A DNA stretch of 64,000 nucleotides from Candidatus Poribacteria bacterium (GCA_963663765.2 CAXXUA010000004.1:768001-832000); one strand, 5' to 3'; shown: positions 1,239 to 62,624, counted from the stretch's first letter. Notes: a model not told the origin generated them from the sequence alone. Numbers and translations: made by a program.

Positions 1239-1240
1239 AA

Positions 1241-1560
1241 TATAGTAGACTATAGCAGGACTTACGCACCCAACGGTAGGCGCGCTTTGTAGGCGGGGAA
1301 TGCCAAAAGGCATTCATACCGTTGATTTGGCGCTGGAAACCGAAAAAATGCTGAAAATTACACCATTTTCGTCATAATTCTTCATCAAATCATGAAAACT
1401 GCGTAAGTGCGGTATAGAATTAATTGGACATTCTGTTAGGTTCGGTTAGGAAACCAAACCAACCGAGGGTGTTGAAACACTAACTGTTAGTTGTCTCCGT
1501 ATCTGCACAAACTAACAGTTAGTGCTACAAAATATCCTATTAATTATATGCTTTACTATA
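1241..1560. mobile_element. Degenerate TA-flanked MITE (family C) interrupted by a MITE-A copy
   Basis: Ends TATAGTAGACTATAG-AATTAATT ... AATTATATGCTTTACTATA resemble the ends at 10424-10629 and 54424-54548. Confidence 0.5.
1256..1412. mobile_element. MITE-A copy carrying a 35-nt hairpin insertion
   Basis: TIR CAGGACTTACGCA / TGCGTAAGTGCGG, 5-bp TSD TATAG; 157 bp versus 122 bp for empty copies. Confidence 0.9.
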
Positions 1561-1587
1561 TACTATATATAGCTTCTAAATGAAATT

Positions 1588-1833
1588 CAGGACTTACGCA
1601 GTTTTCATGATTAAGAGAAGAATAATGACGAAATTGTCAGTATTTTTCGGTTTTAAGCGCGCTTACATGAAGATTAATTTAATAATTCGGTAATAGATAT
1701 TTCTCACACGGTAGGCGGGGAATGCCTTAATGGCATTCATACCGTTGATTTGGTGCTTTGTAAGCGCGCTGTTTGGTCTTGATGTGCCAGCCGCGCTTAC
1801 AAAGCGCACCTACCGTTGTATGCGTAAGTCCTG
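1588..1833. mobile_element. MITE-A copy with nested insertions
   Basis: Perfect 13-bp TIRs, 7-bp direct repeat TGAAATT on both sides; interior has a family-B-like end at ~1668 and a 35-nt unit at 1717-1751. Confidence 0.85.
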
Positions 1834-1838
1834 TGAAA

Positions 1839-3932
1839 TTATTCTTCAGCTGTTTCAGTATCAACTTCAACATCTGCAGGAAGAACTTCTAATTCGATTT
1901 CTGTATCACCCGTCACGATGAAGCGATTGATGATCAATGCTGTCCCTGTAATAGGTATCGGACGTGGTGTTGGATCCATTTCTTCCATCATTTCTTCTTC
2001 GTCAACGATGTCAATTACTTCACCATTTTCAGGAGGAGTTTCACCGTTATCAGGAGGAGTTTCACCGTTATCAGGAGGAGTTTCACCGTTATCAGGAGGA
2101 GTTTCACCATCCCCTGGAGTTTCGCCGTCATCTGGAGGCATAACACCATCACCTGGTGGCATTCCTCCCCCAGCGATTCCCTCAAATATCGCTTCAAAGA
2201 ATTGTTCAAAGAAATCTTCAAATAATCCTTCTATAGAGTCCATACCAAGTCCAGGTTCTTCCTCCTCTAAAGTAGCGAGGGTTGCGAGAACCAATCCTCT
2301 ATCATATTGGAGATCCTTTAGTTGACCGATGAGTTGATCCAAATTCTCTGGAGACTGAGCAAATGGACTTCCAAAAGGATTGAATCCATAATCCGTGGCT
2401 GCAGCCATAGATAGACTTGCTTTTCCAGTTTGGAAGTTTTCAGGTATATATAGTTTCACTTCTCTGTACATATTCCGGCTTTGTCCTGCAGCACTCCAGT
2501 GCGGTAGTGTTTCGAGGACGAAAGTTGCAACTTCACCTTGTTTGACTTCCCCGATGACGTGGATGTCTTTTATTTCTGTATGCAGGATATATGGAAGGTC
2601 AGCAATATAGATGTTGACTTCATCTATGGTTGCTCTACCAGCACCATTTGCGAGTATGTTTGTAAAAGACCCGATAATTCTACTCATTCTTGCCAATACA
2701 GTTTCATAGGGATCAGGTGTAATTGAACGGAAAGACTCAGTATAGACTTCATCAGTCTCCTTGAAACTGATTTCCACATGTGCTTCAAGAGTTCCGGTAC
2801 TAACTTCACTACGTATTGCGTCTAATGACGTGGCAGCAACAATAGGTATTGCCAATTCTTCCTGACCATAAGCAACTTTGTGTTTTGTTTCAATTGGCAG
2901 TTGACTATTTACTGGATGATATGCGACATTAACGTCAATCATTGAGGGTAATTTACCCAATTCACCAACAATTCCTGCTCTTAGGTCTTTTGTAATTGTT
3001 CCTATTGGATTACCATAAGCGGAAGCAGATTTATATGCGATTCTTGTATTAGGAACAATTCCATCAACAACAGCTCTGTAGGTGGGCATAGATGCCTGAC
3101 CTCCAAGGAACATGTCGTGGCCGAATGCGACGAATTTATCGTCGTAGACTTGTGTTACAGTTCCAAAACCCCCGATGTTAACAATATCACCCGTAGCAGC
3201 AAACACACCGATCATGTCACCAGCGGTTAGGTTTTTTGAAGCGTTTGCGGGTGGTGCACCGGGTGCTCCGCCGATGCGTGCGTAGAATTCAACATTATTG
3301 TATTGTGTGCCTTGAAGGTGTGATGACAGTTGTCCTAATCTATTGGCATCAACACCAGTAATTGTAACCGGTGTTTTTATAGAAGTGAATGTTGAGTTGA
3401 TGGCAGCTCCGGGTGCGCCAGGTGGGTTCAAGAACTCACCGAAGGTTACATGTTCTAATGTTGCTTCCATTGCATCGATGGGGGTAACCCAGAACCGGTG
3501 TGGTGCTGCTGCCCAATAATCACCATAAGACAGTGCACCGAAGACTTTGCCTTTTATTCCGACTGGACTTCCGGACATACCTTGTGCAAGTCCACCCATC
3601 GCTGTTATAGCTTCATCTGTCAGGACACATTCATAAAGTGGGAATCCATAACCAGAGGGTTGGACTCTTCGGAATTCTGCTTCAAATATTACCTTGCTTG
3701 TGCCCTCAATTGCCGTAATAACTTCAACTGGAGTTTTTGTTGCAAGTCTGCGAACTTCATCTTCATACATACTTTCGAGTGTTACTTCACCAACCAATGG
3801 TGCAGCGTTAAACTCATCTGTAACATCAACAATTGCTGGATTTTCAATTTGTGCTTGTTCTTCATCAGGTGAACAACCTAACTGACCTAAAACCAAAATT
3901 GCAAATGCTACTAAAACAAAAAAACGTTTCAC
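1839..3932 (-). CDS. Lipoprotein with SpoIVB peptidase S55-like domain and acidic Pro-rich C-terminal repeats
   Basis: Signal peptide with LGC lipobox; QGMSGSPV catalytic serine motif; FVAFGH motif. Confidence 0.8.
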   Translation of the reverse strand: MKRFFVLVAFAILVLGQLGCSPDEEQAQIENPAIVDVTDEFNAAPLVGEVTLESMYEDEVRRLATKTPVEVITAIEGTSKVIFEAEFRRVQPSGYGFPLYECVLTDEAITAMGGLAQGMSGSPVGIKGKVFGALSYGDYWAAAPHRFWVTPIDAMEATLEHVTFGEFLNPPGAPGAAINSTFTSIKTPVTITGVDANRLGQLSSHLQGTQYNNVEFYARIGGAPGAPPANASKNLTAGDMIGVFAATGDIVNIGGFGTVTQVYDDKFVAFGHDMFLGGQASMPTYRAVVDGIVPNTRIAYKSASAYGNPIGTITKDLRAGIVGELGKLPSMIDVNVAYHPVNSQLPIETKHKVAYGQEELAIPIVAATSLDAIRSEVSTGTLEAHVEISFKETDEVYTESFRSITPDPYETVLARMSRIIGSFTNILANGAGRATIDEVNIYIADLPYILHTEIKDIHVIGEVKQGEVATFVLETLPHWSAAGQSRNMYREVKLYIPENFQTGKASLSMAAATDYGFNPFGSPFAQSPENLDQLIGQLKDLQYDRGLVLATLATLEEEEPGLGMDSIEGLFEDFFEQFFEAIFEGIAGGGMPPGDGVMPPDDGETPGDGETPPDNGETPPDNGETPPDNGETPPENGEVIDIVDEEEMMEEMDPTPRPIPITGTALIINRFIVTGDTEIELEVLPADVEVDTETAEE
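2030..2125. repeat. In-frame 21-bp tandem repeat encoding GETPPDN
   Basis: CAGGAGGAGTTTCACCGTTAT about 4 times plus degenerate flanking units. Confidence 0.9.
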
Positions 3933-4343
3933 TAATTTACTCCTAACTTAGTTTTAATTCTAAATCATTTAATTTAGAAAAATTAATTATATTAGCAGTC
4001 TACCAGAAAACTGAATTAGTTTAATAATAATGTTTTTAGTAGACATATAACAGTAGTTTAATGTCTATATATGGTAGATTTTGGAAATAAATACACATTC
4101 AGCATAGGCAGTATAAGCGTGAGGCATTCTGATTCTGCATTGGTTAGGAAACCTCACTAACCTTATGTCAATAGTGTTAACCGATTTCCAACATTCACCA
4201 TAAATGAGACATTAGTTTAAATAAAATAACGGGAATATATTGAAAGACTTTACCTAACTATTACTAACTATACTTGAGAATTATACCTTATAGATTAAGG
4301 TAATGCAATAAAATATACACAACAATTCATGAGTAGTATTTTC

Positions 4344-5108
4344 TTACCATGCAACCCAACCTCCATCAACAGCAATGGTTTGGCCGGTAACCCAATTTGC
4401 TGCGTCAGAAGCTAAGAATAGCACTGCTCCAACTACTTCGTCTACTTCCCCAACACGTCCCATAGGTATCCGTCGAACGACGTCTTCATAGAATTCTTTT
4501 CGTTGTAGTAGGACATCTGCAAGTGGTGTTCGTGTGAAAGCGGGTGCGACAGCGTTGACGGTAACATTGTGTGGTGCCCATTCAACTGCGAGTCCTTTGG
4601 TGAGAAGTACGACACCCCCCTTACTACCGGAATACGCTGTACGTAGTGGTCCACCAACTAAGCCCATTGTTGATGAAATATTTATAATCTTTCCACTTTC
4701 GCGTTCAATCATAGGTTTGACAAGTTTTTGTGTGAGAAAGAATAGTCCTTTGAGATTGAGATCGTAGATTGCGTCCCAATCTTCTTCAGTAAGGTCTAAA
4801 GCGGGTTTTGGTCGATTGGTACCAGCATTATTGACGAGGACATCAACGCGTCCCCATACATCCAAAGCTGCTTTTGCGCCGTCCTGTACTGATTTCATAT
4901 CACTCACATCAAACACCACAGGTTGTGCTTCTCCGCCATTTTCACGTATCTCTTCAGCGACTTCATCAAGGTCTGATTTTGTGCGGCTGTTAAGAATTAC
5001 TTTAGCCCCCATCTGTGATGCTGCTAATGCAATACCTTTTCCTATTCCTTTACCAGAACCGGTAATCAACATTACTTTTTCGTTCAATTCAAATCCTGGA
5101 AATGCCAT
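4344..5108 (-). CDS. SDR family oxidoreductase
   Basis: TGSGKGIG, NNAG, YSGSK catalytic motif, VDGG. Confidence 0.92.
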   Translation of the reverse strand: MAFPGFELNEKVMLITGSGKGIGKGIALAASQMGAKVILNSRTKSDLDEVAEEIRENGGEAQPVVFDVSDMKSVQDGAKAALDVWGRVDVLVNNAGTNRPKPALDLTEEDWDAIYDLNLKGLFFLTQKLVKPMIERESGKIINISSTMGLVGGPLRTAYSGSKGGVVLLTKGLAVEWAPHNVTVNAVAPAFTRTPLADVLLQRKEFYEDVVRRIPMGRVGEVDEVVGAVLFLASDAANWVTGQTIAVDGGWVAW

Positions 5109-5126
5109 TTAGTTCCTCCTTCAATT

Positions 5127-5280
5127 TACAGTGTCTCTCTAAATCATTTGTGGGGTAAGGTTTCTGTACCTCTCCAGGTCTTGGGAACAGAAACAATGGG
5201 TAGGTACAGAGACCCATCCCTACGTAGAAGTTAGAATATCAGAAATGAACCGTTTTTAATGATTTATGAGATAGGTTGTA
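5127..5280. mobile_element. MITE family H copy with internal REP-like pair; supplies the folD stop codon
   Basis: TACAGTGTCTCTCTAAAT ... ATTTATGAGATAGGTTGTA; right end identical to copies at 6226 and 21010. Confidence 0.7.
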
Positions 5281-6142
5281 GTTTTTTGCATTCATAAAGT
5301 TCAGAATCTGTGTAATTACATGCTAATTTTAGAGTGTTTTCCAATAACATAGCTCTTGTCAGTGGACCAACTCCTCCTGGAACAGGTGTAAGATATCCTG
5401 CTATTCCTTTGACCTTTTCAAATTTGACATCGCCGACAAGTCGATCCTCAACTTTGTTTATACCAACATCTATGACGGTAGCTCCTGGTTTTACCATGTC
5501 CGCTGTAATGAACTCTGGTTTTCCGATTGCAGCAACAAGGATATCAGCTTGCTTCGTAATCTCTGCGAGATATTTTGTGCGTGAATGACAGTAGGTTACT
5601 GTTGCGTTACGATTTAGCAGCATCACACCTACGGGTTTTCCCACAAGATGACTTCTACCAACACAAACAGCATGTTTTCCTTCAATTGGTTCTCCAGTGA
5701 GTTCAATAAGTCGTATAATACCCGTTGGTGTGCAGGGAGTAATTCCCTCTCTGTTTATGAATAGGTTTGCTAAGTTTAGGGGAGTTAATCCATCAGCGTC
5801 CTTGTCTGGTGAGATTGTATCTATTATTTCTTGTTCATCAATAGTAATTGGCAGCGGCATTTGCACCAAAATACCGTGAATATCTTGGCGATCATTTAAT
5901 TCCTTTACCATTTCAATCAGTGATTTTTGTGTTATATCGGCGGGCAGTTTTTGGACTTCAGAATGAAAATGTACTTTTTGGCAATCGCGTTGTTTGTGTT
6001 TAATGTAGAGAGTTGAGGCAGGATCGTTGCCAACTTGGATGACAGCGAGTCCAGGAATAATGTTTAGTTTTTTGAGTTTTTGACGGATTTGACTACGGAT
6101 TCGTTGTGCAAGACAAGTTCCGCTTAGAATTTCGGAAGACAA
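5264..6142 (-). CDS. folD: Bifunctional methylenetetrahydrofolate dehydrogenase/cyclohydrolase
   Basis: GILVQMPLP, KDADG, PCTP, GRSHLVGKP, TPVPGGVGP motifs. Confidence 0.96.
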   Translation of the reverse strand: MSSEILSGTCLAQRIRSQIRQKLKKLNIIPGLAVIQVGNDPASTLYIKHKQRDCQKVHFHSEVQKLPADITQKSLIEMVKELNDRQDIHGILVQMPLPITIDEQEIIDTISPDKDADGLTPLNLANLFINREGITPCTPTGIIRLIELTGEPIEGKHAVCVGRSHLVGKPVGVMLLNRNATVTYCHSRTKYLAEITKQADILVAAIGKPEFITADMVKPGATVIDVGINKVEDRLVGDVKFEKVKGIAGYLTPVPGGVGPLTRAMLLENTLKLACNYTDSELYECKKLQPIS

Positions 6143-6225
6143 TTCGGTTTCCCCAAAAAAGATGGTGTATTTACATTATATATCTAATTGAGGTTTTTGC
6201 GCAAGAATAAAGTTCAGGTATTAAT

Positions 6226-6327
6226 TACAGCGAATCTCATAAATGCAATTTTGTTCAAATTCACAGGATCGCGTGTCTGGTAAATCGGGGTTAGAAACTC
6301 CTCCTACCATTTATGAGATAGGTTGTA
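6226..6327. mobile_element. MITE family H copy (~100 bp, TA-flanked)
   Basis: Imperfect TIR TACAGCGAATCTCATAAAT / ATTTATGAGATAGGTTGTA; near-identical to 21010-21110. Confidence 0.75.
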
Positions 6328-6333
6328 TTTACA

Positions 6334-8307
6334 CTAATCGGTTTTTAATCGTTTTAGTCGTTCTTGTATAAAGGTTAGAACGGTTTCTTGGCTTTGAAAT
6401 CCGAGTGTTCCAGCTTCATCAATAGCAATTTGCATTTGAATAGGATTATCTGTTAGCATTTTTTCAGCATTTTTGTAATATTCTTCAGCTTTTTTCTTTT
6501 CACTGTTTTCTTGATGCAAAACTGCTAAATAGATATATGCTGCAGCAAGGCGTGGGGAAACAGTCCGGGTTCTGATAAACTCCTCAAATGCGTAACGTGC
6601 ATCAGCAAAACGTTGATCTTCAAAATGGACTCTTCCAATGCGAAATTGTGCTCTATCTGCGTAACTATCCTTATATCCACCTGTCAGATAGAGTTCTCGT
6701 TCTGGATAAGCGATAGTTGTATGGTAAGCTTTCACTGCTTCATCGTATCGTTGTAGTTTTCTATAGATTTCACCTACTTGGAATGTTGCCATCATGGCTT
6801 GCAGCGTATTTGGATGCTGTGAAGTGATTGCGTTGAATGTTTGTAGCGCAGAATTAGGCTTTTCAAGTATTTCCGTATTTATGATACCTATGCGGTAGAG
6901 TGCTTCAGCAGCATACGGGGAAGTGGAATATGCTTGTATTACATCATTATATAGTTCAACAGCCTTTGCATAGTCAAGTAATTCGCGCTCATAGATAGTA
7001 GCGATTTGAAGTTGTGTTCTGACTTTTACATTTGTATCTACAGCATTGTTCTGTATTTGTGAAAGTAGGTTCTGTATCATTGCGAGGTGTTTTAGTGAAT
7101 ATAGTTGAACGTCAACTTTTTTAGCAAATTGTGATTTCGGGTCAGTGGCTATAAGTTTTTGTGCTATGATTAATGCCTTGTCATATTGTTTTTCTTTTAC
7201 AGCATTCTCAAATTTTTCATATTCATACTTTGGAATAGTTTGTGAGAGCGAATTTATTTTTTCTTTAATCAATTCTTTTACTTCTGAAACGTTCTTGTCA
7301 TACATTGAAATCTGTCCAAGGTATACAGGATCAAGTTTCGGAAGGTAGACGTTCAGGAATATTTTGTAAGCGTTTTGTGCTTCCGTATAGTCTTGCAATT
7401 GTTCATAGCATGTACCTAACCAATAATAAACTGCATGCATATTCCAGAAGTTAGGATACTTTTCAACTATAGAATTATATTCATTGATAGCAGTTTGATA
7501 TTTCTTATCTTCGCGTTGTAGATTTGCGATATGGAATAGAGCTTCAGCGGCGAAGTTAGTGGTAGGAAAATTGTTGGCGACATTCTCATATGCTTCAACA
7601 GCCAGAACTAATTGATGAAGTACTGTGTGTCGGATGTGTGCGATTCGCCATTGTGCTTCTGGTGCTAACTTATCAGTAGGAAAATTCTCAAGTAAATCCT
7701 CATACATTTCAATAGCGCGTTCCGGTTGATTGAGTTGTGTGTGAGTCCGGTAAAGTTCTGCAATTTGAAATTGTGCGACTGCTTCTAAAGGCGTGCCTTT
7801 ATATGTGTTGACAGTATTTTTTTGTATCTCTAAGTTTTTTAGTGAGGTGCGAATATCTCGTATCTTACGTTGTCCGATCTCATATACAAAATGTGTTTCA
7901 GGTGCCATTCCAATTAGTCTTCTGAAACTATCAATAGCTTTCTGATATTCACCCATCCGACTATACACATCACCCATCTTTAGATATGCGAGCAGAATTT
8001 CAGCTATAGGGAGACCGTCAGCTCTCATACGAATAATTTTTTCATAGGTTCTTATAGCTTCAGGATATTGGTGAGTATAATTATAATACGTTTCTCCGAG
8101 TTGATGATAGAGTCTACTCCGAGTTTCAACATCTTTTGAGGATTCAGCGAGAGTTTCCAATTTTGAGACTGCTTCTGGAAACCGACGTTCCTTAATTAAA
8201 TCGTTGACTTCATTATCCTGTGCTTGCGCATTTGGGAATACCAATAGGCATAAACATAGGACAGAATATACAAAGTGGTTGAGAAAGGATGAATAATTCA
8301 TTTTCAT
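6334..8307 (-). CDS. Secreted tetratricopeptide-repeat protein
   Basis: Signal peptide (AQAQ), many TPR-like units ending in FP/YP-x-x-x-x-A-x-E-A. Confidence 0.85.
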   Translation of the reverse strand: MKMNYSSFLNHFVYSVLCLCLLVFPNAQAQDNEVNDLIKERRFPEAVSKLETLAESSKDVETRSRLYHQLGETYYNYTHQYPEAIRTYEKIIRMRADGLPIAEILLAYLKMGDVYSRMGEYQKAIDSFRRLIGMAPETHFVYEIGQRKIRDIRTSLKNLEIQKNTVNTYKGTPLEAVAQFQIAELYRTHTQLNQPERAIEMYEDLLENFPTDKLAPEAQWRIAHIRHTVLHQLVLAVEAYENVANNFPTTNFAAEALFHIANLQREDKKYQTAINEYNSIVEKYPNFWNMHAVYYWLGTCYEQLQDYTEAQNAYKIFLNVYLPKLDPVYLGQISMYDKNVSEVKELIKEKINSLSQTIPKYEYEKFENAVKEKQYDKALIIAQKLIATDPKSQFAKKVDVQLYSLKHLAMIQNLLSQIQNNAVDTNVKVRTQLQIATIYERELLDYAKAVELYNDVIQAYSTSPYAAEALYRIGIINTEILEKPNSALQTFNAITSQHPNTLQAMMATFQVGEIYRKLQRYDEAVKAYHTTIAYPERELYLTGGYKDSYADRAQFRIGRVHFEDQRFADARYAFEEFIRTRTVSPRLAAAYIYLAVLHQENSEKKKAEEYYKNAEKMLTDNPIQMQIAIDEAGTLGFQSQETVLTFIQERLKRLKTD

Positions 8308-8344
8308 ATTTTATTGTTTTGTATTCAATCAGAGTAATATACCT

Positions 8345-8466
8345 CAGGACTTACGCACCCAACGGTAGGCGCGCTTTGTAAGCGCGCTGGAAACCGAAAA
8401 AATGCTGAATATTACACCATTTTCGTCATAATTCTTCATCAAATCATGAAAACTGCGTAAGTCCTG
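8345..8466. mobile_element. MITE-A, empty 122-bp reference copy
   Basis: TIR CAGGACTTACGCA / TGCGTAAGTCCTG, 6-bp TSD ATACCT, internal GGTAGGCGCGCTTTGTAAGCGCGC hairpin. Confidence 0.93.
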
Positions 8467-8591
8467 ATACCTAAATGTTCAAATAAACAATTTCTGTTGT
8501 CATGTTCGGTTTGGAAAACGCACATTTTGGGGTATATAGATTAATATCCAAGAAAAAAGCGATTATGAGATAGGTCATAGAAAATGTTGAT

Positions 8592-9209
8592 TTAGAAATC
8601 GGAGTTAACATTTTTTAGATGTTTATTTGCGATATTTGCTAAATCTGTGCCTTGTGCACGTTCTTTAACACGATTGAGTTGACTGACAGTATCCCACGAA
8701 TCAGAGTTGCGTAGATGTTTATTGCGTAGGGAATCTTCCATACTTCTTTGAATGTCTTGGCGTCGGTACTGTTCTATATGTGCGTCTGCTGTGTCAAGTC
8801 CATTTGCTACATACTCGGACTTATTTTGCAACGGATTTCCTACAAAAAACGCGATAGAAATTACTGCAGCGATGAATAAGCAAACGCTTGCCACCTTCTG
8901 CTGCTGCAAAATGAACATGAACCTTGAAAAATAGTCTGTGAACCGAGACAACAGTGAAGGATTTTCTACTGGTACTTCAGCAAGTTTTCTGTAGAGACGC
9001 ATTTCAAGGTTGTGAGGTGCGATAGGATGCGGTATAAAATCCCCCTCAGCTGCGTCAACAAGGTGAAGCACACGTTCAAAGTCTTTTACCTTACTGGTGC
9101 AAGAATTGCACATGGTTAAATGGTTTTCAAAATTAGGTACCAAAGCGGAATCTAATTCACCATAGGCATAATCAATCGCTTGTGCTTCAAATTTCTTACA
9201 TTTAGGCAT
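8592..9209 (-). CDS. Zinc-finger (HxxxCxxC) anti-sigma factor
   Basis: HLTMCNSC motif, one TM helix, directly downstream of the ECF sigma factor. Confidence 0.88.
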   Translation of the reverse strand: MPKCKKFEAQAIDYAYGELDSALVPNFENHLTMCNSCTSKVKDFERVLHLVDAAEGDFIPHPIAPHNLEMRLYRKLAEVPVENPSLLSRFTDYFSRFMFILQQQKVASVCLFIAAVISIAFFVGNPLQNKSEYVANGLDTADAHIEQYRRQDIQRSMEDSLRNKHLRNSDSWDTVSQLNRVKERAQGTDLANIANKHLKNVNSDF

Positions 9210-9231
9210 GGACTTCCTCCTATATTACGTT

Positions 9232-9813
9232 CTATATCTCATTGTTTTCCCAAAGCGGTTGTAGTATCGTCTGTAATTTTTTCATTGCGCGATGTAGATG
9301 TATTTTTACTGTTCCTTCTGCCATTCCAAGTGTTTCTGCGACTTCTTTTATCTGTAGACCTTCATATCGTGTTAACATAAAGACTGATTTTTGTTTTGAT
9401 GAGAGTTCGTCAACTGCTTCGCGGATGATGCGTCCTTTTTCTTTATCTTCTAAGTGTTTTTCAGGATTGCTTGAGATGTCCGTTGCGACAAGTCTTTTCT
9501 CAATAATCTCCTCATCTTCAAATATAAATTCTGGTTTTCTTGCTTTAGAACGGTGATAATCGATGGAAAGATTTGAGGCAATTGTATATAACCATGTAGA
9601 GAATTTTGCTTTTGGCTGCCATGAAGCGAGTGCACGGTATGCTTTGAAAAACACCTCAAGCGTTAGTTCTTCTGCATCTTCGTAATTTCTGACAGAACGT
9701 AGGAGATACCCGAAGATTCTACGTTCGTACCGTTTCATTAAGGTGTCAAATGCCTTCTGGCTACCCGCCTTAAACTGTGTTACGAGGATTTCATCGTCAA
9801 TCATTGTGTCCAT
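9232..9813 (-). CDS. ECF sigma-70 family RNA polymerase sigma factor
   Basis: DAEELTLEVF, FSTWLYTIA (region 2); EVAETLGMAEGTVKIHLHRA (region 4). Confidence 0.95.
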   Translation of the reverse strand: MDTMIDDEILVTQFKAGSQKAFDTLMKRYERRIFGYLLRSVRNYEDAEELTLEVFFKAYRALASWQPKAKFSTWLYTIASNLSIDYHRSKARKPEFIFEDEEIIEKRLVATDISSNPEKHLEDKEKGRIIREAVDELSSKQKSVFMLTRYEGLQIKEVAETLGMAEGTVKIHLHRAMKKLQTILQPLWENNEI

Positions 9814-10004
9814 ATTTTTTGCCAGACTTTCTTTTTGTTTTGAACAACTGATTCTTGTAACGTTTATATTTTTGATTCAGTTTACAAATTATAGGATTTT
9901 TTGTCAAAATTATACATTATTTTTGACAAACATTCAAACAACAGAAATTCTTGGGGGTGTGTAAAGTTTTGGTTACTGTGTGTAGGGGCGGGGTCTCCCC
10001 GCAC

Positions 10005-10307
10005 CATAAGCGTCAATTTAAGGATTTTGACGTATTGTGGGAGGGGTTTTCAACCCCGAATTTATGCGCTTTTCCTCTCAATTCGGGGTTGAAAACCCCT
10101 CCCACAAGAGAAATGACAACACTTTTTTCTTAAATTGACGCCTATGGGGCGGGGTCTCCCCGCACCATAGGCGTCAATTTAAGGATTTTGACGTATTGTG
10201 GGAGGGGTTTTCAACCCCGAATTTATGCGCTTTTCCTCTCAATTCGGGGTTGAAAACCCCTCCCACAAGAGAAATGACAACACTTTTTTCTTAAATTGAC
10301 GCCTATG
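10005..10307. mobile_element. Two tandem 142-bp MITEs inserted in a REP hairpin
   Basis: TIR CATAGGCGTCAATTTAAG / CTTAAATTGACGCCTATG; copies 10005-10146 and 10166-10307 separated and flanked by 19-bp GGGCGGGGTCTCCCCGC(A/C)C. Confidence 0.88.
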
Positions 10308-10423
10308 GGGCGGGGTCTCCCCGCCCGAACAGAAACTTTACGCGGGCGAGAAAACCTCGCCCCTACGATGTCCACAGTTCCCTTACGTCAAGCAAGCTTG
10401 ATAGAAACTTTAGATACTTCTTT

Positions 10424-10629
10424 TATTGTGAAATATACAATTAAGTTTACACTTTTTCTGTAGGCGGGGAATGCCAATAGGCATTCATACCCGGGGAATA
10501 CCTTAATGGTATTCATACCGTTGATTTCTTGATTTCGATCTCCGAATCGCGACTGAACGCCTTGATAGTCGGGAATCGGAGTTCCCTCCTACCCCTGAAA
10601 GTGTAAAAATAATTCTAAAATCCACTATA
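10424..10629. mobile_element. MITE family C copy with REP pair and doubly nested 35-nt unit
   Basis: Imperfect TIR TATTGTGAAATATACAATTA / TAATTCTAAAATCCACTATA. Confidence 0.6.
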
Positions 10630-10873
10630 ATATCAGGGTTTCTACAAAAACTTTACACACCCAATTCTTGGAAACCCTTGTGAAGTGTTGTATCTGATCC
10701 ATTATTTTCATTATTAAGGGCTGTTATCTATAAAATTATTTGTTGCTTTATGAGTTTTAATTGGATGTATTGTTTAAAAAATGTTTCCAAATGGACACTT
10801 TTTTCGTTTTTTTGGTAACATTTTAAAATGGTTGTATACCCTGTTATAGAAAGGATTAGTAAGTGCTTCTTAC

Positions 10874-11094
10874 CCTACACTCCGCACTTGTTTTAATACA
10901 TTTTTATAATATTGGGATAAACCCGCATCACATAAGGATTCGCACATTATAATGGAGATTATGAGTTATATATTTGAGACAACCCAACTTGCTATTTTGT
11001 CATTTTAAAATTGAAAATGTTTGCTAAATGTAGTTTCCACACGGGTTTATCAAATTATTATTGAAAAACGCAAATCAGAAGTGCGGAGTGTAGG
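10874..11094. mobile_element. IS1634-like MITE (family F, 221 bp)
   Basis: Perfect 16-bp TIR CCTACACTCCGCACTT / AAGTGCGGAGTGTAGG, 6-bp TSD TCTTAC; family name inferred from end sequence. Confidence 0.85.
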
Positions 11095-11355
11095 TCTTAC
11101 TGTTCTTGAAAAATATTTTTCCGTGTAAGTGTAACATTTTTATCTCTTGTTTTTTCGGGGGTCAGAATGTGTCATTTTTGTAAAATCGCTATTATATTTT
11201 GTTATATATCTGATATGTAATATATATTGTAACATAAATAATAGTGTGTGTCAGGTCTTTATTATATAATTTATTGAGGGTGTGTGAAGTTTTCATTGTA
11301 TTATCAGATTAAATCAGATAAAATAATACAAAACACTATTTGTGGAGGTTATTCC

Positions 11356-12375
11356 ATGACAGAGACACAAGAAAAACCGAGAGTGATTCCAGCGTCAGAA
11401 ACAGCAGAACAGATGACAAAAGCAGCTGCGAATTTCTTGGACGTTCTGACACCTGTTTTGCGAGAAAAAGCATGCCAACCTTTTGATGGTAATGAAAGGT
11501 TTCGTTGGCATTATATTCCAATTGAGATGTGGGAACGTCAGGGAGTGTCATTGATAGAGTTAGATGCTAAACAGCAGGAAGCTGCGTTCTCACTTATGCA
11601 AAGTGGGTTGAGTTCTAATGGATACGAGAAAGCACGTGCTATAATTAACTTGGAGAAGATACTCGGAGCAATTGAGAAAAAAACGGGAGATACAAAACTT
11701 GAACGTAATCCAGAATATTATTATTTCACTATTTTTGGTGATCCGACTGGGAACGGTACTTGGGGTTGGCGTACAGAAGGACATCATGTCTCGCTAAACT
11801 TTACGGTCGTCAATCGTGAGTTGATTTCACCAACACCTTTTTTCTTAGGTTCGAACCCTGCAGAGGTGCTTGAAGGTAACGAAAAAGGATTACGTGTATT
11901 GTATGCTGAGGAAGAACTTGCCCGTCAACTATTGACGAGTTTCACACCCTATCAGAAAACTCATGCTGTTATCAATACAGAAGCTCCTGCGGATATTCTC
12001 ACACGCAATGCGCCAAAGGTTGAGTTTGATGCGGTTGAAGGTTTTGCAGCGGAAAATATGCAAACCTATCAGCGCGAACTTCTTATACAATTAGTTCATG
12101 AATATATTGATCGGTTACCGGATGAGGTTGCCAAGATAGAACGTCAAAAACTCCAAGATGGAAGTATCAACGACATTCATTTTGCTTGGGCGGGTGGGGA
12201 AGAACGTAGAACACCTCACTATTATAGAATTCACGGTCCGTTTTTCTTTGTTGAATACGACAATACTCAGAACAATGCAAACCATATCCATTCGGTTTGG
12301 AGACACATTGAGGACGATTTTGGTTTGGATCTGCTTCGGCAGCACTATCACAAAACTGACCATCACGATCATTAG
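11356..12375 (+). CDS. DUF3500 domain protein
   Basis: WGWRTEGHHVSLN, YYRIHGP, EYDNTQNNANHIHSVWR; ATG 11356 after GGAGG. Confidence 0.9.
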   Translation: MTETQEKPRVIPASETAEQMTKAAANFLDVLTPVLREKACQPFDGNERFRWHYIPIEMWERQGVSLIELDAKQQEAAFSLMQSGLSSNGYEKARAIINLEKILGAIEKKTGDTKLERNPEYYYFTIFGDPTGNGTWGWRTEGHHVSLNFTVVNRELISPTPFFLGSNPAEVLEGNEKGLRVLYAEEELARQLLTSFTPYQKTHAVINTEAPADILTRNAPKVEFDAVEGFAAENMQTYQRELLIQLVHEYIDRLPDEVAKIERQKLQDGSINDIHFAWAGGEERRTPHYYRIHGPFFFVEYDNTQNNANHIHSVWRHIEDDFGLDLLRQHYHKTDHHDH

Positions 12376-12391
12376 ACAAGTGTCCGAAATA

Positions 12392-12419
12392 ACAAAGCCG
12401 CCGGTATAGGCGGCTTTGT
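12392..12419. terminator. Probable bidirectional rho-independent terminator
   Basis: ACAAAGCCGCC-GGTATA-GGCGGCTTTGT stem-loop between convergent genes. Confidence 0.75.
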
Positions 12420-12444
12420 CTATAGGATCATATACAAATATTTT

Positions 12445-13311
12445 TTACCAGACAGATTTTATTCTGCCCCAGGTAGTTGTTGCCTTATTGTCAGGTTCAA
12501 CAGATGTAACTGGATCGGGACTTAGAATTACTAAACCTGTATTCTCACTCTGTTTTGGACCATTGACGATACAATCGGTATACCAACCACTCCACCCCTT
12601 TTGTCCTGGAGTATCTGAATCACCGTCATTAACGCTGACAGCAAAACCGAATTCGTAACCTTCAGAGAATTCTCCACCTTCAATTTGCAATTCCTCTGCA
12701 GAAAATCTGTATTCGTAATAGGTTTCCTTATCGTCTTCGTTTCGGGTAATAGCGACATTTTGACCTGCGACAAGACCAGGACTACCGTGTGTACTTTCAT
12801 TATGTAAAATGATGTCTTGTGCGTTGCCGCTTATGGCAGCGTTATATAGAAAGAGTCTTAGTCCGGCTTCACGCATTCCAGTTGGTTCAAAACCGATTTG
12901 CGCGCTATCGCCATTCCATGCAGCACCACCATTCTGGTGTTCGTCATCCGTAACAGCGATTGCAAGATAAATTGCATCGGGTTCCCAGACGATTGCAAAA
13001 CAGGTTCTGTGGTCATCACGGTTATTCCATATTCCGCCACTCCATTCGCGGAAAACATAGATTTCACCGTCATTACCAGCAAATTCTACTTCGCAAAATG
13101 GTTCATCATTTGTACCTAAAACTGATTCAACGACACCTTCCCATCCTTCTTCATCATTAAGTACACCGTCAATGTCAATAGTAAGGTCATCAGATTTTTT
13201 AGGTGCATTATATACATCATGTGTTTCGCTTCGCCACTGTGCGTCAACATTGATTGTAAACAAAGTTCCAGTTGCAAATAGTGCAATAATCATCACAACA
13301 AATTTTTTCAT
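12445..13311 (-). CDS. Secreted CBM9/DOMON-like sugar-binding protein with C-terminal TWGxxK motif
   Basis: Signal peptide, IDGVLND, IYLAIAVTDD, WNGDSAQ, VNDGD; ends KATTTWGRIKSVW. Confidence 0.75.
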   Translation of the reverse strand: MKKFVVMIIALFATGTLFTINVDAQWRSETHDVYNAPKKSDDLTIDIDGVLNDEEGWEGVVESVLGTNDEPFCEVEFAGNDGEIYVFREWSGGIWNNRDDHRTCFAIVWEPDAIYLAIAVTDDEHQNGGAAWNGDSAQIGFEPTGMREAGLRLFLYNAAISGNAQDIILHNESTHGSPGLVAGQNVAITRNEDDKETYYEYRFSAEELQIEGGEFSEGYEFGFAVSVNDGDSDTPGQKGWSGWYTDCIVNGPKQSENTGLVILSPDPVTSVEPDNKATTTWGRIKSVW

Positions 13312-13427
13312 AGAAAATCTCCTATAATAATTGATGTTTGTTTTTTGGGCAGAAAAGACTGCCCAGCCAGATTAAGTAGCAAATTCTATCGCTACGATTT
13401 ATTTGGTCATAGCCTCTACGAAAAACG

Positions 13428-14264
13428 TCATTTAGAGGCTTTAACTCTCCCCCAAGTTGTAGTTAGTTTGTTTCTTACATCCACAGCAAGTTCATCAGCT
13501 GAAAGTCTGACGAGTCCTGTATGTTCGCTTTGTTTTGGTCCCTTGACGATGCAATCTGTATACCAACCACTCCAACCTTTCTGTCCGGGAGCATTATCAT
13601 CTCCATCATTTACACAGATTGCAAGACCGAATTCAAAACCTTCTTCAAAATTGTCGCCTTTGTTAATTTCATCAGCTGTAAATTTGTATTCGTAATAGGT
13701 TTCATTTTCATTTTCATTTCGAACTACAGCGACATATTCACTATCATTAAGTCCAGTACCACCTGGTCTTTCATCGTGATAAATGAGGTTTTTTGCATCG
13801 TTGTCTAAAGCGACATTATAGAGTAATAATGCTAACCCACCATCGCGCTTACCGGACATTTCAAATCCAAGTTGTACACTGTCGCCATTCCAAGCACCTC
13901 CAGAATTCTGATGATCATCATCAGTAACACTGATAGCAAGATAGATTGCATCTTCATCCCATACAATTGCGAAGCATGTCTCATGATCTTCTGGACCGTC
14001 CCATGTCCCTCCATTTGCTTCCCATACTTCTTCCTTGCCACCAGCATCAAATTCAACACCACAGAAGGGTTCTCCATTTGTACCAGTAACCGATTCAATT
14101 ACATCTTCCCAACCTTCATCGTCATCCAGTTCACCATCAATTGTAATATCTGCGGGTATTTTAAGTGCGTTGTAAACGTCGTGTGTATCACTCCGCCATT
14201 GTGCGTGTGCAGTTATACTTGTAATCAAAAACAGTAGTGTAATTACAATGAAAAACTTTCTCAT
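13428..14264 (-). CDS. Secreted CBM9/DOMON-like sugar-binding protein, paralog of 12445-13311
   Basis: Same motifs; shared PGQKGWSGWYTDCIV; ends KLTTTWGRVKASK; ATG 14264 after AGGAGA. Confidence 0.75.
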   Translation of the reverse strand: MRKFFIVITLLFLITSITAHAQWRSDTHDVYNALKIPADITIDGELDDDEGWEDVIESVTGTNGEPFCGVEFDAGGKEEVWEANGGTWDGPEDHETCFAIVWDEDAIYLAISVTDDDHQNSGGAWNGDSVQLGFEMSGKRDGGLALLLYNVALDNDAKNLIYHDERPGGTGLNDSEYVAVVRNENENETYYEYKFTADEINKGDNFEEGFEFGLAICVNDGDDNAPGQKGWSGWYTDCIVKGPKQSEHTGLVRLSADELAVDVRNKLTTTWGRVKASK

Positions 14265-14393
14265 TATTTTTCTCCTTAGTTTGTACTTCAATGTATATCT
14301 CAAATTGCATGAACCATTAGCATTATGCAATTTTACTATAGTTTTATATTTTAACATATCTTTTTAGAAACGTCCACAAAAAGACATCGTTTA

Positions 14394-14597
14394 CAGGGTT
14401 ATTCAGCTATTGGTTTTTTGGTAGATATTTAAAACATTCGTGAATTAGAAACGTAGTCCAATAGAGCGTATGCGAAACCCGATATGTATTAATTGTGGTT
14501 ATCATGTCGGATTTCGCATAAGCTCTACCCGACCTACGATGTATACTCTAAATGAAATTCATCGACGACAAAGAATGCTTAAAACTGAATAACCCTG
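14394..14597. mobile_element. MITE family D copy with internal REP pair
   Basis: TIR CAGGGTTATTCAG / CTGAATAACCCTG; flanked by a 19-bp imperfect direct repeat (16/19). Confidence 0.8.
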
Positions 14598-14631
14598 CAC
14601 AATAAGACATCGTTGGCAATCAATATAAAGG

Positions 14632-16167: not shown

Positions 16168-16191
16168 AGGATCAACTCCGTTTAGGATGTA

Positions 16192-17361: not shown

Positions 17362-17407
17362 AAAATTCCTCCTATATCATGGTGAAACTGAAAATAATTA
17401 TACCTTA

Positions 17408-17595
17408 TACCAATTCAAATAAATCTTGTCTCATTAAGGAATTCTACTGTTTACTGGCAAGGGGTTACTCTCTTCGGTAGGAGCGACCCGGGGAATGCCA
17501 AAAGGCATTCATACCGTTGATTTGCCGGTCGCGACCGGGAGGTCGCTCCTACCAGATTTCCGCTGCTAATGAGACATTATCACATGAAAATGGTA
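17408..17595. mobile_element. MITE family G copy with 35-nt unit inserted in its REP
   Basis: TACCAATT ... AAATGGTA ends, TTA on both sides; aligns to empty copy 43878-44030. Confidence 0.85.
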
Positions 17596-17780
17596 TTATT
17601 TTAGTTAGCTGCTCTGGCAGGTGTGCTATTAATTTTCGCTCTTGTATTATTCGGTAGGAGTAGCCTCCAAATCAAGTAATCAACGGTATGAATGCGTGTA
17701 TGGCATGCCACAGGTCGCTTCTACCTGTTAAGTGTGTAATTTAATTCCAAGATATACTATAAACAAAAGTCTTCACATAT

Positions 17781-19246: not shown

Positions 19247-19256
19247 GTAACACTTC

Positions 19257-19379: not shown

Positions 19380-19384
19380 ACTTC

Positions 19385-20338: not shown

Positions 20339-20350
20339 AGTTCTCCAACA

Positions 20351-20968: not shown

Positions 20969-21009
20969 TAGTTGTTCCTCGTGATTTCCTGATAATTCTT
21001 TGATATAAA

Positions 21010-54554: not shown

Positions 54555-54789
54555 CAGAACTTACGCACCCAACGGTAGGCGGGGAATGCCTAAATGGCAT
54601 TCATACCCGCCGAATGCCATAGGCGCATTCGGCGTTGATTTGGGGGAATGCCAAAAGGCATTCATACCGTTGATTTCTTGATTTCTTGATTTGGTGCTTT
54701 GTAAGCGCGCCGGAAACCTAAAAAATGCTGGAAATTACATCGTTTTCGTCTTAATTCTTGATTGGATCATGAAAACTGCGTAAGTCCTG
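54555..54789. mobile_element. MITE-A copy with triple nested 35-nt units
   Basis: 5-bp TSD TAGAG; three hairpin heads and four TTGATTT tails at 54581-54692. Confidence 0.88.
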
Positions 54790-60496: not shown

Positions 60497-61069
60497 TTAT
60501 GTTACCGTTGCCATTGCAACTGTATGGGTGTTCCGCTGTTTTACCTTACGATAGTTTCCAAAAATATCCAAGAATTTCCGTTTGATAAACTGGCGAAGAC
60601 CCGAAATAGTAACTACATAGATCCTACCATTCGGCTTTAGATGGTGTCTTGCATCAGTGAAAAACAGATGTAGCAACTCATTACCAGTTTTTGCTGGTAG
60701 GTTTGAAGCAATTACATCAAATTGGATATTGGAAAGATGACTAAATCCGTTGCTAAGGAACACCTCACAATTTTGGAGTTGATTCTGTTTTACGTTCTTT
60801 TGTGCATAGTCTACCGCAACAAAATCTTTGTCTACCATATAGACTTCTACAGATTGAAAACACTTTCCGATAGTAATACCAACAGCTCCATAGCCACATC
60901 CAAGATCAAGACATGTATCACCACTGTTTATATGTAACTGCTCAACTAAAATCCGTGTTCCAGCATCAATTGCTTTCGGTGAAAACAGGCCCCACGTTGT
61001 TGTAAAGGTCAAGTCATGGCCACGCAATTGTGTGTTAAATGATGTTTCAGTCGGTATTTCTGGTGTCAT
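60497..61069 (-). CDS. Class I SAM-dependent methyltransferase (RsmC-like, small)
   Basis: GLFS, IDAGT, LDLGCGYG, SNLP. Confidence 0.88.
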   Translation of the reverse strand: MTPEIPTETSFNTQLRGHDLTFTTTWGLFSPKAIDAGTRILVEQLHINSGDTCLDLGCGYGAVGITIGKCFQSVEVYMVDKDFVAVDYAQKNVKQNQLQNCEVFLSNGFSHLSNIQFDVIASNLPAKTGNELLHLFFTDARHHLKPNGRIYVVTISGLRQFIKRKFLDIFGNYRKVKQRNTHTVAMATVT

Positions 61070-62430
61070 TACTGTTCTAATAACTTCACTAAATCTTTGC
61101 GAGTTGTCGGTATACTCAAATCCATAAGGTAAATATGAAAACTGTCGTTCCTATCGGAAGCAAACGCCAAATATCTACCGTCAGGGGAGAACGTTGGTTG
61201 AATCGATCTACCTATACCACTTGTAATTTTACGTTCATTTTTTCCATCAACATCAACGAGATAGATTTCCCAGTCGTTATCTCTTGAAGACATAAACGCA
61301 ACCGTTTTGCCATCAGGTGAAACTGTTGGATTGTAACAACCATATCTGTTTGGATTGAGATGTTTTAAGTTTTTCCCATCAATATCTATCATAAAAAGTT
61401 GATTAACACCATTGTGGGAAGATACAAATACCAACCGTTCTTCATCTGGAAAAAATGTTGGACTACCATCGTCAACATCGTTGAATGTAATCCGTTCAGG
61501 TGTAATCTGTTGAGGGATTATCCCTGTAAGTTCTATATCCTTAAATTCAAGCAGATATAATTCCAAATTGTCATCAGTACTTGATTCGTAAACAACCTTC
61601 ATTCCTGAAGGTGATGATCTTGGAGCTCGAGTGCCAAAACTGATGGGTATCACAGCGCGAGTCACTTTGCTATGGATATGTGTCATGTTTAAACCCGCGT
61701 ATGTTGATGTTGAACCACTACCAAGGATGCCAACTTTGACTTCACGCGACGATTTCGATTCACTACTATACAAAAGAAAATTTGGATTCTTCAAAAATGT
61801 AGGAGCACTATCGTTGAAATCCGTTGTATACGTTACACGGCGAAGGATGCGTCCGTTAATATCCATCAGATAGATATCATCATTGTCAAGACGAAAGGAG
61901 GAATACGCAATCTGTGTACCATCAAGGGAGAAGGTCGGGGAATAATTGTCTGATTCACCATTGGTAAGTTGCTTTGTCTTATAGCTATCTCCAACCAATG
62001 AGATTATTTCGCGCAATACTTCTGGGTCAGATGTTCCTTTGTGAATAGTATTTAGCAAACGAAATGCAGATGTTCTATTACCAATCCTTAAATATGTTCG
62101 TGCTAACTCAAGGCGAGCTTCAAGACGTTTATCAGGTTGCGATGTATAGAGTTGTGATGTTCTTTTGAACTGTAAAATGGCATCATCGGAACGATTTAAC
62201 TGGTTGTATACTCGACCCAGTAACATCCGTGCTTCTGGATTGTTCGGTTTCTTATCTATAATTGTTTCCAATTTGTTAACCGCAGTTTCTAACTTTTCCT
62301 CCTCAATGAGTTTCTCAATTTTATTCAAACCGTTATCTTGACACCCAAACACTACAACTATAGAAATTACAAAACTGAAACAAAATAGAAAAGCACAATT
62401 TAGATTAACATTTTGAGTTGCAATATGCAT
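61069..62430 (-). CDS. TPR + TolB-like (PD40) beta-propeller lipoprotein
   Basis: FGC lipobox-like site, N-terminal TPRs, repeated P.FSPDG motifs. Confidence 0.85.
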   Translation of the reverse strand: MHIATQNVNLNCAFLFCFSFVISIVVVFGCQDNGLNKIEKLIEEEKLETAVNKLETIIDKKPNNPEARMLLGRVYNQLNRSDDAILQFKRTSQLYTSQPDKRLEARLELARTYLRIGNRTSAFRLLNTIHKGTSDPEVLREIISLVGDSYKTKQLTNGESDNYSPTFSLDGTQIAYSSFRLDNDDIYLMDINGRILRRVTYTTDFNDSAPTFLKNPNFLLYSSESKSSREVKVGILGSGSTSTYAGLNMTHIHSKVTRAVIPISFGTRAPRSSPSGMKVVYESSTDDNLELYLLEFKDIELTGIIPQQITPERITFNDVDDGSPTFFPDEERLVFVSSHNGVNQLFMIDIDGKNLKHLNPNRYGCYNPTVSPDGKTVAFMSSRDNDWEIYLVDVDGKNERKITSGIGRSIQPTFSPDGRYLAFASDRNDSFHIYLMDLSIPTTRKDLVKLLEQ

Positions 62431-62466
62431 TTTGGTTGTACTGAATTATGGAATTTTTAAATAAAA

Positions 62467-62624
62467 CATGACTTACGCACCCAACGGTAGGCGGTGAATG
62501 CCTAAATGGCATTCATACCGTTGATTTGGTGCTTTGTAAGCGCGCCGGAAACCCAAAAAATGCTGAAATTTACATCGTTTTCGTCTTAATTCTTGATTGG
62601 ATCATGAAAACTGCGTAAGTCCTG
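62467..62624. mobile_element. MITE-A copy with one 35-nt unit
   Basis: 6-bp TSD ATAAAA; unit at 62493-62527 directly after GTAGGC. Confidence 0.88.

Follow-up and report, generated by a model that had tools for sequence, protein, structure and literature searches.

A 35-nucleotide hairpin-and-tail micro-element inserted into other repeats in genomes of Candidatus Poribacteria

The stretch of DNA analysed here, a window of 64,000 nucleotides (G000:C4:768001-832000) within the 6.35-Mb, 15-contig metagenome-assembled genome (MAG) of a Candidatus Poribacteria bacterium (hereafter G000), raises the question of whether a hairpin followed by the motif TTGATTT, about 35 nt in all and here called the HT element, is an insertion element in its own right, and by what activity it could be moved. 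An initial annotation had described the hairpin and its tail as a unit inserted into repetitive extragenic palindromic (REP) hairpins, and this description was right: a hairpin-level search of the genome found 642 units, with filled and empty alleles in many unrelated host repeats. The HT element is thus a real, abundant and lineage-specific insertion micro-element, among the smallest insertion elements seen, 35 letters that were inserted hundreds of times into other repeats, and the coupled grammar of its blocks is an unexplained clue. Within the window, the hairpin GGAATGCC-N3-6-GGCATTC occurs 7 times exactly, against 0 in 100 dinucleotide-preserving shuffles, and GGCATTCATACCGTTGATTT has 11 matches at up to 3 mismatches, with 0 expected from shuffles. 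An 18-nt core yields 630 matches across the genome at up to 3 mismatches (409 of them exact), and the 642 units fall into 298 loci if those less than 3 kb apart are merged. In a scan of public genomes with the full 34-35-nt pattern, all 80 loci among the matches listed came from Candidatus Poribacteria MAGs, and a cyanobacterial source, which the GGACTTACGCA ends of a resident MITE had at first suggested, was discarded. Full-text searches, with supplementary files outside their range, found no published description of the sequence; three element-specific strings were absent from the papers listed, two 10-mers being present only in unrelated ones, and the literature on REP, miniature inverted or REPIN (inverted REP doublet) repeats of Poribacteria held nothing relevant.

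The unit can be written as C.H.G.T.G, where H is GGGGAATGCC-loop(3-7)-GGCATTCATACC and T is TTGATTT, the first tail octamer being GTTGATTT; spelled out, the whole unit of 34-36 nt reads GGGG-AATGCC-loop-GGCATT-C-ATA-CC-G-TTGATTT-G. The hairpin has a 7-bp stem (GAATGCC/GGCATTC), an ATA bulge facing G, and a CGG/CCG closing. The opposite strand begins GGTAT, and neither strand bears the GTAG or CGTC tag. Among 461 parsed arrays, 367 contain one hairpin, 83 contain two and 11 contain more.

Evidence that this unit was inserted comes from filled and empty copies of the same host repeats. Both pairs originally put forward are real: a clean gap of 35 nt separates the filled copy at 1256-1412 from the empty one at 8345-8466, and one of 34 nt separates 17408-17595 from 43878-44030. 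Hundreds of empty sites were found across seven host classes (the caret marks the insertion point), namely GGTAGGC^GTGCTTTG, TTTGTAAGC^GCGCTGGA, AATGCCATAC^GCGCATT (a related hairpin's loop), CGCTCTACCC^GACC, GCGACC^TCCCGGTCGC, GAGACCC^CGCCC and AATCC^TGAAAAT. Where the site is a CpG, precisely GGGG..TTGATTTG is inserted, 35-36 nt with a 1-nt G ambiguity. For 12 of 459 loci, a flank-based search (at least 220 nt on each side, 91-100% identical) recovered empty paralogous sites, 19 in all, and the best pair has flanks that are 100% and 99% identical over 350 nt each. None of the filled/empty pairs shows a target-site duplication (TSD), the ambiguity being at most 1 nt; the absence of duplications and the junction shift of 1-2 nt described for the window were both confirmed. 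Orientation relative to the GTAGG tag is likewise fixed as described, with 252 units forward and 1 reverse at the same symmetric CpG. The usual site is C^G beside or within other palindromic repeats (GTAG-type REPs, miniature inverted-repeat transposable elements (MITEs), related hairpins) or the element's own copies. The claim that units always follow GTAGG or GTAGGAGCGAC holds for most copies in the window and fails genome-wide: of the 642 units, 243 stand after G(T/C)AGG-type flanks and 41 after GCGACC, and the others occupy at least six further contexts (nesting behind another unit accounts for 151, loops of related hairpins for 72 and tandem arrangement for 37), with 42 left unclassified by the regular expressions that assigned contexts. 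Left flanks end variously (..TAGG, ..CCATA, ..GACC, ..ATCC, ..TCTC), and the single base they share is the C that precedes GGGG in 415 of 461 arrays.

The stem keeps its pairing through compensatory changes. Over the 642 units, both sides of a stem pair were changed in 70 cases, 66 of which restore pairing; of 174 single changes, 48 lead to G-U pairs and 126 break the pair. The 100% pairing in a covariation table was set aside as circular, its sequences having been pre-filtered for perfect pairing, and 66 of 70 is the unbiased count. The same pre-filtering applies to a cross-genome alignment with compensatory changes at 6 of 10 pairs, which shows no more than that such variants exist. The stems fall into four subfamilies (alpha to delta), in all of which the TTGATTT tail is invariant. 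Beta (CG(A/C)CAAATGC..GCATTTGGCG, about 65 copies), gamma (CG(C/A)CGAATGC..GCATTCGGCG, about 10 copies) and delta (CG.CAGAAGC..GCTTCTG.CG, about 15 copies) differ in their stems and have in common the frame C | CG-stem-loop-stem-CG | TTGATTT | G. Since stems vary with pairing kept and the tail is constant, we read the stem as recognised by structure and the tail by sequence. The beta element occupies the C^G of yet another repeat, TTTAGTCCC^GTAGGGACGAT, of which empty copies are visible; a tandem array at G000:C5:1704790-1705030 consists of a repeat of about 55 nt with TTTAGTCCCGTAGGGACGATATGTTTAT, the empty form of the beta-element site.

The family is confined to one lineage in the genomes sampled, which are samples and not censuses: allowing up to 1 mismatch in a 20-mer, all 18 genomes of the genus and the 1 genome of a sister genus have the element, and searches of 2 genomes from another genus of the family and of 39 from three other families gave no match. 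Copies per genome range from 2 to 468 across the genus, with G000 the richest. Insertion took place independently beyond one host repeat, as the same variants lie in unrelated contexts and other species have other hosts. The two commonest variants each occupy 8 named, non-homologous contexts, 9 of 140 variants occupy at least three, and the compensated-stem variants GAATACC/GGTATTC and GAATGCT/AGCATTC recur across contexts. The main host REP of G000 has 0 copies in G064, which holds 186 elements, and 1 in G001, which holds 120; there the elements lie, once more at C^G, in repeats of the AATCCGCG and GGGAACTC types and in others. One MITE-like host accounts for most copies of G001, which may be passengers, and G064 shows several contexts and loops. 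Neither random position and orientation nor descent of all filled sites from one or two ancestral events, which had been named as outcomes that would speak against a mobile unit, describes these data, with variants in up to 8 non-homologous contexts and hosts that are species-specific. The reading that we favour, if tentatively, is that HT elements form a lineage-specific family of non-coding micro-elements, each a self-contained insertion module moved by an activity supplied in trans and then largely amplified by its hosts.

How the blocks of the unit are combined bears on this reading. Arrays follow the grammar C.H.(C.H)n.G.T.(C.T)m.G, in which the first tail octamer is GTTGATTT (377 times) and subsequent octamers are CTTGATTT (213 times). 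The numbers of hairpins and tails are coupled: one of each occurs in 232 arrays and two of each in 64, two hairpins with one tail in just 4, and one hairpin with two tails in 81. Multi-unit arrays are direct and not inverted. Whole-unit tandems are joined by G (GATTTGGGGGAATG, 34 times; C-linked form, 0 times), and the product expected of an insertion at the CpG between H and T was observed once. Tandem arrays of identical units reach 7 x 27 nt in G000 and 7 x 35 nt in G064, and runs of mutated octamers point to local duplication. Head-to-tail arrays of the entire unit, with period 35, lie at G064:C1:1044373-1044602 (7 copies) and G010:C91:2467-2591 (4 copies); this type is rarer in G000 than in those two genomes.

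Passive spread was followed in a 118-nt MITE with terminal inverted repeats (TIRs; GGACTTACGCA..TGCGTAAGTCC), for which 256 of 260 candidates were aligned. It has two insertion sites, with 75 copies filled at GGTAGGC^G (site 1) and 37 at GTAAGC^G (site 2). On a FastTree backbone tree (250 rows, those with more than 10 gaps dropped), whose 118 columns give it low resolution, site 1 fill is unclustered (70 changes, 68.5 in shuffles). Fifteen pairs of MITEs with identical 118-nt backbones differ in fill state, representing at least 7 distinct backbone types among the pairs listed. Divergence is 1.8% and 0.5% in the insert versus 6.5% and 5.9% in the carrier backbone, i.e., 4-10 times lower, a sign of constraint on the element. 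Together, the unclustered site 1, the identical backbones of different fill and the low divergence speak against a purely passive spread.

Several observations weigh against the favoured reading. Loops at MITE site 1 are nearly always of the TAAAT/TAAAC type and those at site 2 are AAAA, and with loops so site-specific, recurrent differences in MITE fill fit precise loss or gene conversion better than fresh insertion; fill at site 2 is moreover clustered on the backbone tree (24 changes, where shuffles averaged 38.3 and ranged from 32 to 41), and much of the copy number is clearly passive, through amplification of host repeats. Junctions are not uniform, with a 34-nt insert at CC^T and C^C and 2 nt (AG) replaced in one host. 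The nested form H-C-H-G-T-C-T is not derivable from one simple insertion into a single element, because this would require a C in place of the G that separates H from T. A mobilising protein was not found, nor was a multi-copy transposase-like gene family among the families ranked highest near the elements, and no evidence of ongoing movement was obtained at the level of strains or reads, Logan contigs being broken at every repeat. Logan contigs were also rejected as evidence of polymorphism, as their apparent joints stem from other copies. Strain comparison was tried and given up, the closest relative in the metagenome scan reaching at most 59% protein identity, and an orthologous intergenic comparison with relatives of the genus was out of reach because genes are 70-85% identical.

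These points raise an alternative that we hold to be doubtful and still take seriously, namely that there is no dedicated machinery: a few illegitimate events, by template switching or repair at stalled hairpins, would have been followed by hitch-hiking on MITE and REP amplification, slippage and gene conversion, and the unit would be conserved because it serves the host, for instance as a site bound by a protein or involved in replication. The site-specific loops and clustered site 2 of the MITE suit this view, as do the tandem arrays of 27 and 35 nt, the mutated octamer runs, the concentration of G001 copies in one MITE-like host and the conservation of the element above its carrier. Genomic context speaks on both sides. 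Divergent intergenic regions are over-represented among units (29% vs 12%), and the units, which favour the C-rich strand 399:243, cluster in regional strand domains of about 70:30, both of which would fit a host function; the strand clustering is common to empty MITEs (filled 67% vs empty 59%, p=0.43). The closed genomes G062 and G064, however, have no clean two-replichore (two-arm) strand pattern in the hits listed, and unit orientation is unrelated to the direction of flanking genes (e.g., 101:98 in ++ intervals). GC skew in G000 tracks gene orientation, and a replication-strand bias was accordingly not used as evidence. The HT element is not a transcript signal, being intergenic (621 of 642 units lie outside open reading frames (ORFs) of at least 150 aa, by crude ORF calling), neutral in orientation to genes and without an Rfam match at the gathering threshold in the 64-kb window. 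Illegitimate events followed by hitch-hiking are further opposed by exact boundaries that recur in at least nine non-homologous contexts and in four stem subfamilies of the same frame, by the 252:1 orientation at a symmetric CpG, by the recurrence of discrete variants, compensated stems included, across contexts, and by 2-468 copies within one genus with different hosts.

If the unit is moved in trans, one candidate, named in the initial annotation, would be a single-strand HUH transposase of the Y1 type, either a REP-associated tyrosine transposase (RAYT) or the TnpA of an IS200/IS605 insertion sequence (IS), acting on a REP-like element or on one resembling a palindrome-associated transposable element (PATE). 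Such proteins are encoded in G000, where the Y1 profile PF01797 has 6 matches. Three near-identical IS200/IS605 copies (tnpA 139-152 aa, tnpB 370 aa) lie at G000:C5:687134-690487, C3:286218-289571 and C5:549367-552720, and one intact RAYT (E=1.3e-10) at G000:C4:621598-622074 (locus L095, C4:620161-623487, outside the window). More than 40 GTAGGAGCGAT hairpin repeats, spaced 37-40 nt apart, surround this RAYT on both sides; a frameshifted RAYT at a contig end (C10:24985-25277) adjoins GCAGGCGTGCTTTGTAAGCGCGC arrays, and a 40-aa N-terminal fragment found by local tblastn (C5:1704569-1704700) adjoins GTAGGAGCGACC repeats. The commonest targets of the HT element are the GTAG-tagged REPs that flank the RAYTs of G000. 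No TSD, fixed orientation and apparently precise gain or loss, hallmarks of the Y1 elements IS608 and ISDra2, are also seen here, together with maintained hairpin pairing, and the target motif of ISDra2 is TTGAT.

Against a Y1 enzyme stands that Y1 genes do not co-vary with element copy number. Three of 17 genus relatives have neither a PF01797 match nor a RAYT homologue that we could find, and hold 120 (G001), 136 (G010) and 186 (G064) copies, of which 81, 94 and 89 are exact, i.e., 48-69%, as many as in the Y1-bearing genomes G002 (2 matches, 190 copies, 74 exact) and G059 (4 matches, 219 copies, 102 exact). Conversely, 21 Y1 matches accompany 8 copies in G009 and 34 accompany 0 copies in G053, and it is the Y1-less G064 that shows several contexts and loops. 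At the 30 RAYT loci that were examined across the order, including that of G000, the flanks are GTAGG repeats, and the hairpin with its tail occurs near them just sporadically. Three IS200/IS605 copies were aligned (a fourth Y1 locus, L094, was not), and their ends, TTAACACTATTCCG.. and ..GGGTACTAYGAC/..GGCAGTGGGTACTAYGAC, are unrelated to the HT element, whose left flanks, moreover, do not end in any single fixed tetra- or pentanucleotide. Mobilisation by a Y1 enzyme is therefore decidedly unlikely, and the resemblance of the tail to the ISDra2 target remains a coincidence, as far as testable.

The gene neighbourhood gave no better candidate. The top-ranked gene family near the elements consists of WD40 paralogues, three members of which were named; other high-ranking ORFs overlap in several frames and were taken for artefacts of repeat arrays. 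WD40 clusters are found at G000:C4:1160421-1165376, C6:46328-48695 and C6:363454-373825, with about 170 ORFs matching each other at 35% identity or more, and 17% of the members lie less than 400 nt from a hairpin unit, compared with 8.8% of all ORFs.

One may also think of descent from an IS110/IS1111-type element, of which the HT element would be a non-autonomous derivative guided to REP hairpins by a bridge RNA. Elements of the IS110 family lack TIRs and TSDs and often target REPs, which would speak for this. The DEDD transposase profile PF01548, however, had 0 matches in G000 while 6 of 14 control genomes responded, and a 35-nt unit is too small for a bridge RNA. Nor was a longer, gene-carrying element with the same ends found: a master element using the hairpin arms as TIRs was considered and rejected, as the 38 orphan right ends are mostly units with another MITE in their loop. 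This explanation is barely conceivable in general and effectively refuted for G000. Of the Y1/RAYT and IS110-type genes that the initial annotation had suggested looking for, none was seen bounded by the same hairpin and tail, the RAYTs examined being GTAG-flanked, the aligned IS200/IS605 ends unrelated and PF01548 without a match; of its interpretation, the minimal, non-coding, orientation-specific insertion unit without TSD that depends on supply in trans stands, and the enzymes proposed for it, Y1 not co-varying and IS110 not detected, are not supported.

A further precedent comes from cyanobacteria. The small dispersed repeats (SDRs) SDR1-8 of Nostoc punctiforme and its relatives, 21-27 nt long, were reportedly described by Elhai et al. 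in 2008, and RNA-mediated spread is said to have been proposed for them there. Spread of this kind, through an RNA copy of the hairpin that is turned into DNA again, could account for SDR-like behaviour of the HT element, which is very small, nested and has a compensated hairpin, and whose precision recalls the insertion of SDR5 inside HIP1, as stated in an excerpt of PMC4390886. We regard it as very unlikely: there is no match to the reverse transcriptase profile RVT_1 (PF00078) in the 97.8%-complete genome G000, with controls responsive, units have no orientation to genes, and there is no Rfam match. The mobilising enzyme is not encoded by the element, and Y1/RAYT, IS200/IS605 TnpA, IS110 and reverse transcriptase all fail the tests that could be run.

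Returning to the favoured reading of a module moved in trans, a possible course of events can be outlined. The hairpin, as a structure, and the tail, as a sequence, would be recognised by an activity supplied in trans, and the unit would most likely enter, in single-stranded form, hairpin-forming targets that are transiently unpaired. Its usual landing point, as the filled sites show, is the step from C to G within a CpG, either at the base of palindromic repeats or in their loops, the element's own copies included. Most present copies would then have arisen passively, through amplification of host MITEs and REPs, through local tandem expansion of 27-nt hairpin blocks, 8-nt C-TTGATTT blocks and 35-nt whole units, and through precise loss or gene conversion between host copies. 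One may go further and propose that the HT element is an independent second case, after the SDRs, of mobile DNA below 40 nt, moved by a chromosomal activity that is neither HUH/Y1 nor a reverse transcriptase and that reads a bulged hairpin plus an unpaired TTGATTT and splices it into the CpGs of extruded hairpins; this is a speculative proposal, and in our judgement rather improbable. If it were true, it would mean a previously undescribed chemistry of transposition or integration, with the C-hairpin/C-TTGATTT block grammar as its footprint. To our knowledge, the precise insertion of tiny non-coding elements into repeats has been an open question since SDRs were described in 2008. The poribacterial family offers an independent system with clear boundaries, an invariant tail, four co-varying stem subfamilies, 2-468 copies within a genus and many closed genomes, so that the responsible gene could be named by comparative genomics and biochemistry could start from a 36-nt oligonucleotide. 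There is a practical side as well, since HT repeats break short-read contigs of sponge symbiont MAGs and inflate spurious ORFs. Short-read contigs from four public sponge runs are broken at every repeat cluster of window positions 1201-21200, and in the repeat-cluster bins of these runs the summed word depth exceeds that of unique sequence by a factor of tens to hundreds.

Reading each locus of the window individually upheld most of the positions initially given. An alpha unit with AAAA loop (35 nt, GGGG..TTTG) lies at 1295-1329 (+), at GTAGGC^GCGC, site 2 of the 118-nt TIR-MITE at 1256-1412, whose empty paralogue at 8345-8466 (+) served as the reference empty site, and a second alpha unit (TTAAT loop, 36 nt) at 1717-1752 (+), at GGTAGGC^GTGC of a host-A REP. 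Behind TTCTGTAGG, a nested array at 10466-10535 (+) is composed of an AATA-loop hairpin, a compensated GAATACC/GGTATTC hairpin, GTTGATTT and CTTGATTT. A single alpha unit follows GTAGGAGCGACC, the host E palindrome, at 17489-17523 (+), the empty copy of this host-E-bearing repeat being at 43878-44030 (+), and a diverged unit with CATACAC loop, plus GTTGATTA and CTTGATTT, stands after GTAGAAGCGACC at 17669-17712 (-). A single alpha unit with AAAA loop occupies site 2 of a MITE copy at 21532-21566 (-), and a hairpin unit after GTAGGAGCGACT, then a second, interrupted unit, follow at 21622-21660 (-). Two composites fill MITE site 1: one of 95 nt at 23324-23418 (-), containing a unit with a second hairpin (GCATGC..) in its loop, a GAATACC-type unit and two tail octamers, and one at 54581-54693 (+), consisting of an alpha hairpin (TAAAT), a gamma element, an alpha hairpin (AAAA), GTTGATTT and two copies of CTTGATTT. 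The gamma element, CGCCGAATGC-CATAGGC-GCATTCGGCG+TTGATTTG at 54608-54642 (+), is the stem variant with TTGATTT tail that had been noticed from the start. A single alpha unit of the GGTG variant with TAAAT loop is found in MITE site 1 at 62493-62528 (+). The remaining positions are not intact units: 21268-21295 (-) retains the right half of a unit, another MITE (TIR ..AATCTTCA) having interrupted its loop, 31216 is merely the 9-nt CATTCCCCG, 31480-31499 (+) is a degenerate remnant with 2 mismatches in 20, and 36471-36510 (-) is a TTGATTTGG tail beside a degenerate MITE arm, without an intact hairpin. The A/T loops of hairpin units are themselves invaded, both at 21268-21660 (-) and genome-wide, by a different MITE with ends TGAAGATTAAT../..ATTAATCTTCA, which splits the units into orphan halves and also enters the TTTGTAA loop of the host REP.

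With which known systems can such an element be compared? IS1397 and ISKpn1 are autonomous IS3-family elements of about 1.4 kb with TSDs; like them, the HT element inserts into loops or stems of palindromic repeats, but unlike them it is 35 nt long and non-coding. Compared with MITEs of DDE transposases, which have TIRs and a TSD, its arms are inverted repeats, but filled/empty pairs have no duplication. The attC sites of integrons have the R''/R' box consensus RYYYAAC..GTTRRRY; here GTTGATT is found without an AATCAAC partner 5' of the hairpin, and the tail is unpaired. With IS200/IS605 elements and PATEs, the HT element shares hairpin-defined ends, the lack of TIR and TSD, orientation specificity, seemingly seamless presence and absence and a TTGAT-containing motif. 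Unlike in IS200/IS605, TTGATTT is a part of the insert, 3' of the hairpin, and not a pre-existing target, and left flanks vary; the features by which a PATE is known, ends matching a resident IS, a fixed tetra- or pentanucleotide target and co-occurrence with Y1, are all absent.

As a short, high-copy extragenic palindrome (642 units, 621 outside ORFs), the HT element resembles REPs and the bacterial interspersed mosaic elements (BIMEs) they form, which are imperfect palindromes of 20-40 nt present in hundreds of copies and in mosaics according to excerpts of PMC3733652 (Di Nocera et al. 2013) and PMC3116915 (Bertels and Rainey 2011), and G000 itself has RAYTs and GTAG REPs. REPs are, however, defined in the abstract of PMC3733652 by an unpaired GTAG or CGTC tag at one end. 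The HT element has no such tag, does not flank RAYTs at the loci examined, inserts into REPs and shows no co-variation with Y1; unlike a REPIN, it is a single hairpin in 367 of 461 arrays, and its multi-unit arrays are direct.

SDRs, listed among short palindromic repeats of unknown origin in excerpts of PMC3733652 and PMC3116915, come nearer. Both are tiny, the HT hairpin block measuring 26-27 nt, and both insert precisely at a fixed position in other repeats, for which SDR5 in HIP1 (excerpt of PMC4390886) is the example. By what is reported of SDRs, the likeness extends to nesting in MITEs, in tandem short repeats and in themselves, to a compensated hairpin and to confinement to a single clade, so that the whole list (less than 40 nt, precise insertion into repeats and self, compensated hairpin, one clade) describes the HT element as well. 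Unlike SDRs, it occurs in Poribacteria and not in cyanobacteria, has an obligatory, invariant tail of 7-8 nt and CpG junctions, and no reverse transcriptase was detected in a genome where HIP1 is nearly absent (GCGATCGC, just 29 copies in the 6.35 Mb of G000). By its behaviour, the HT element has in the SDR family its closest known kind.

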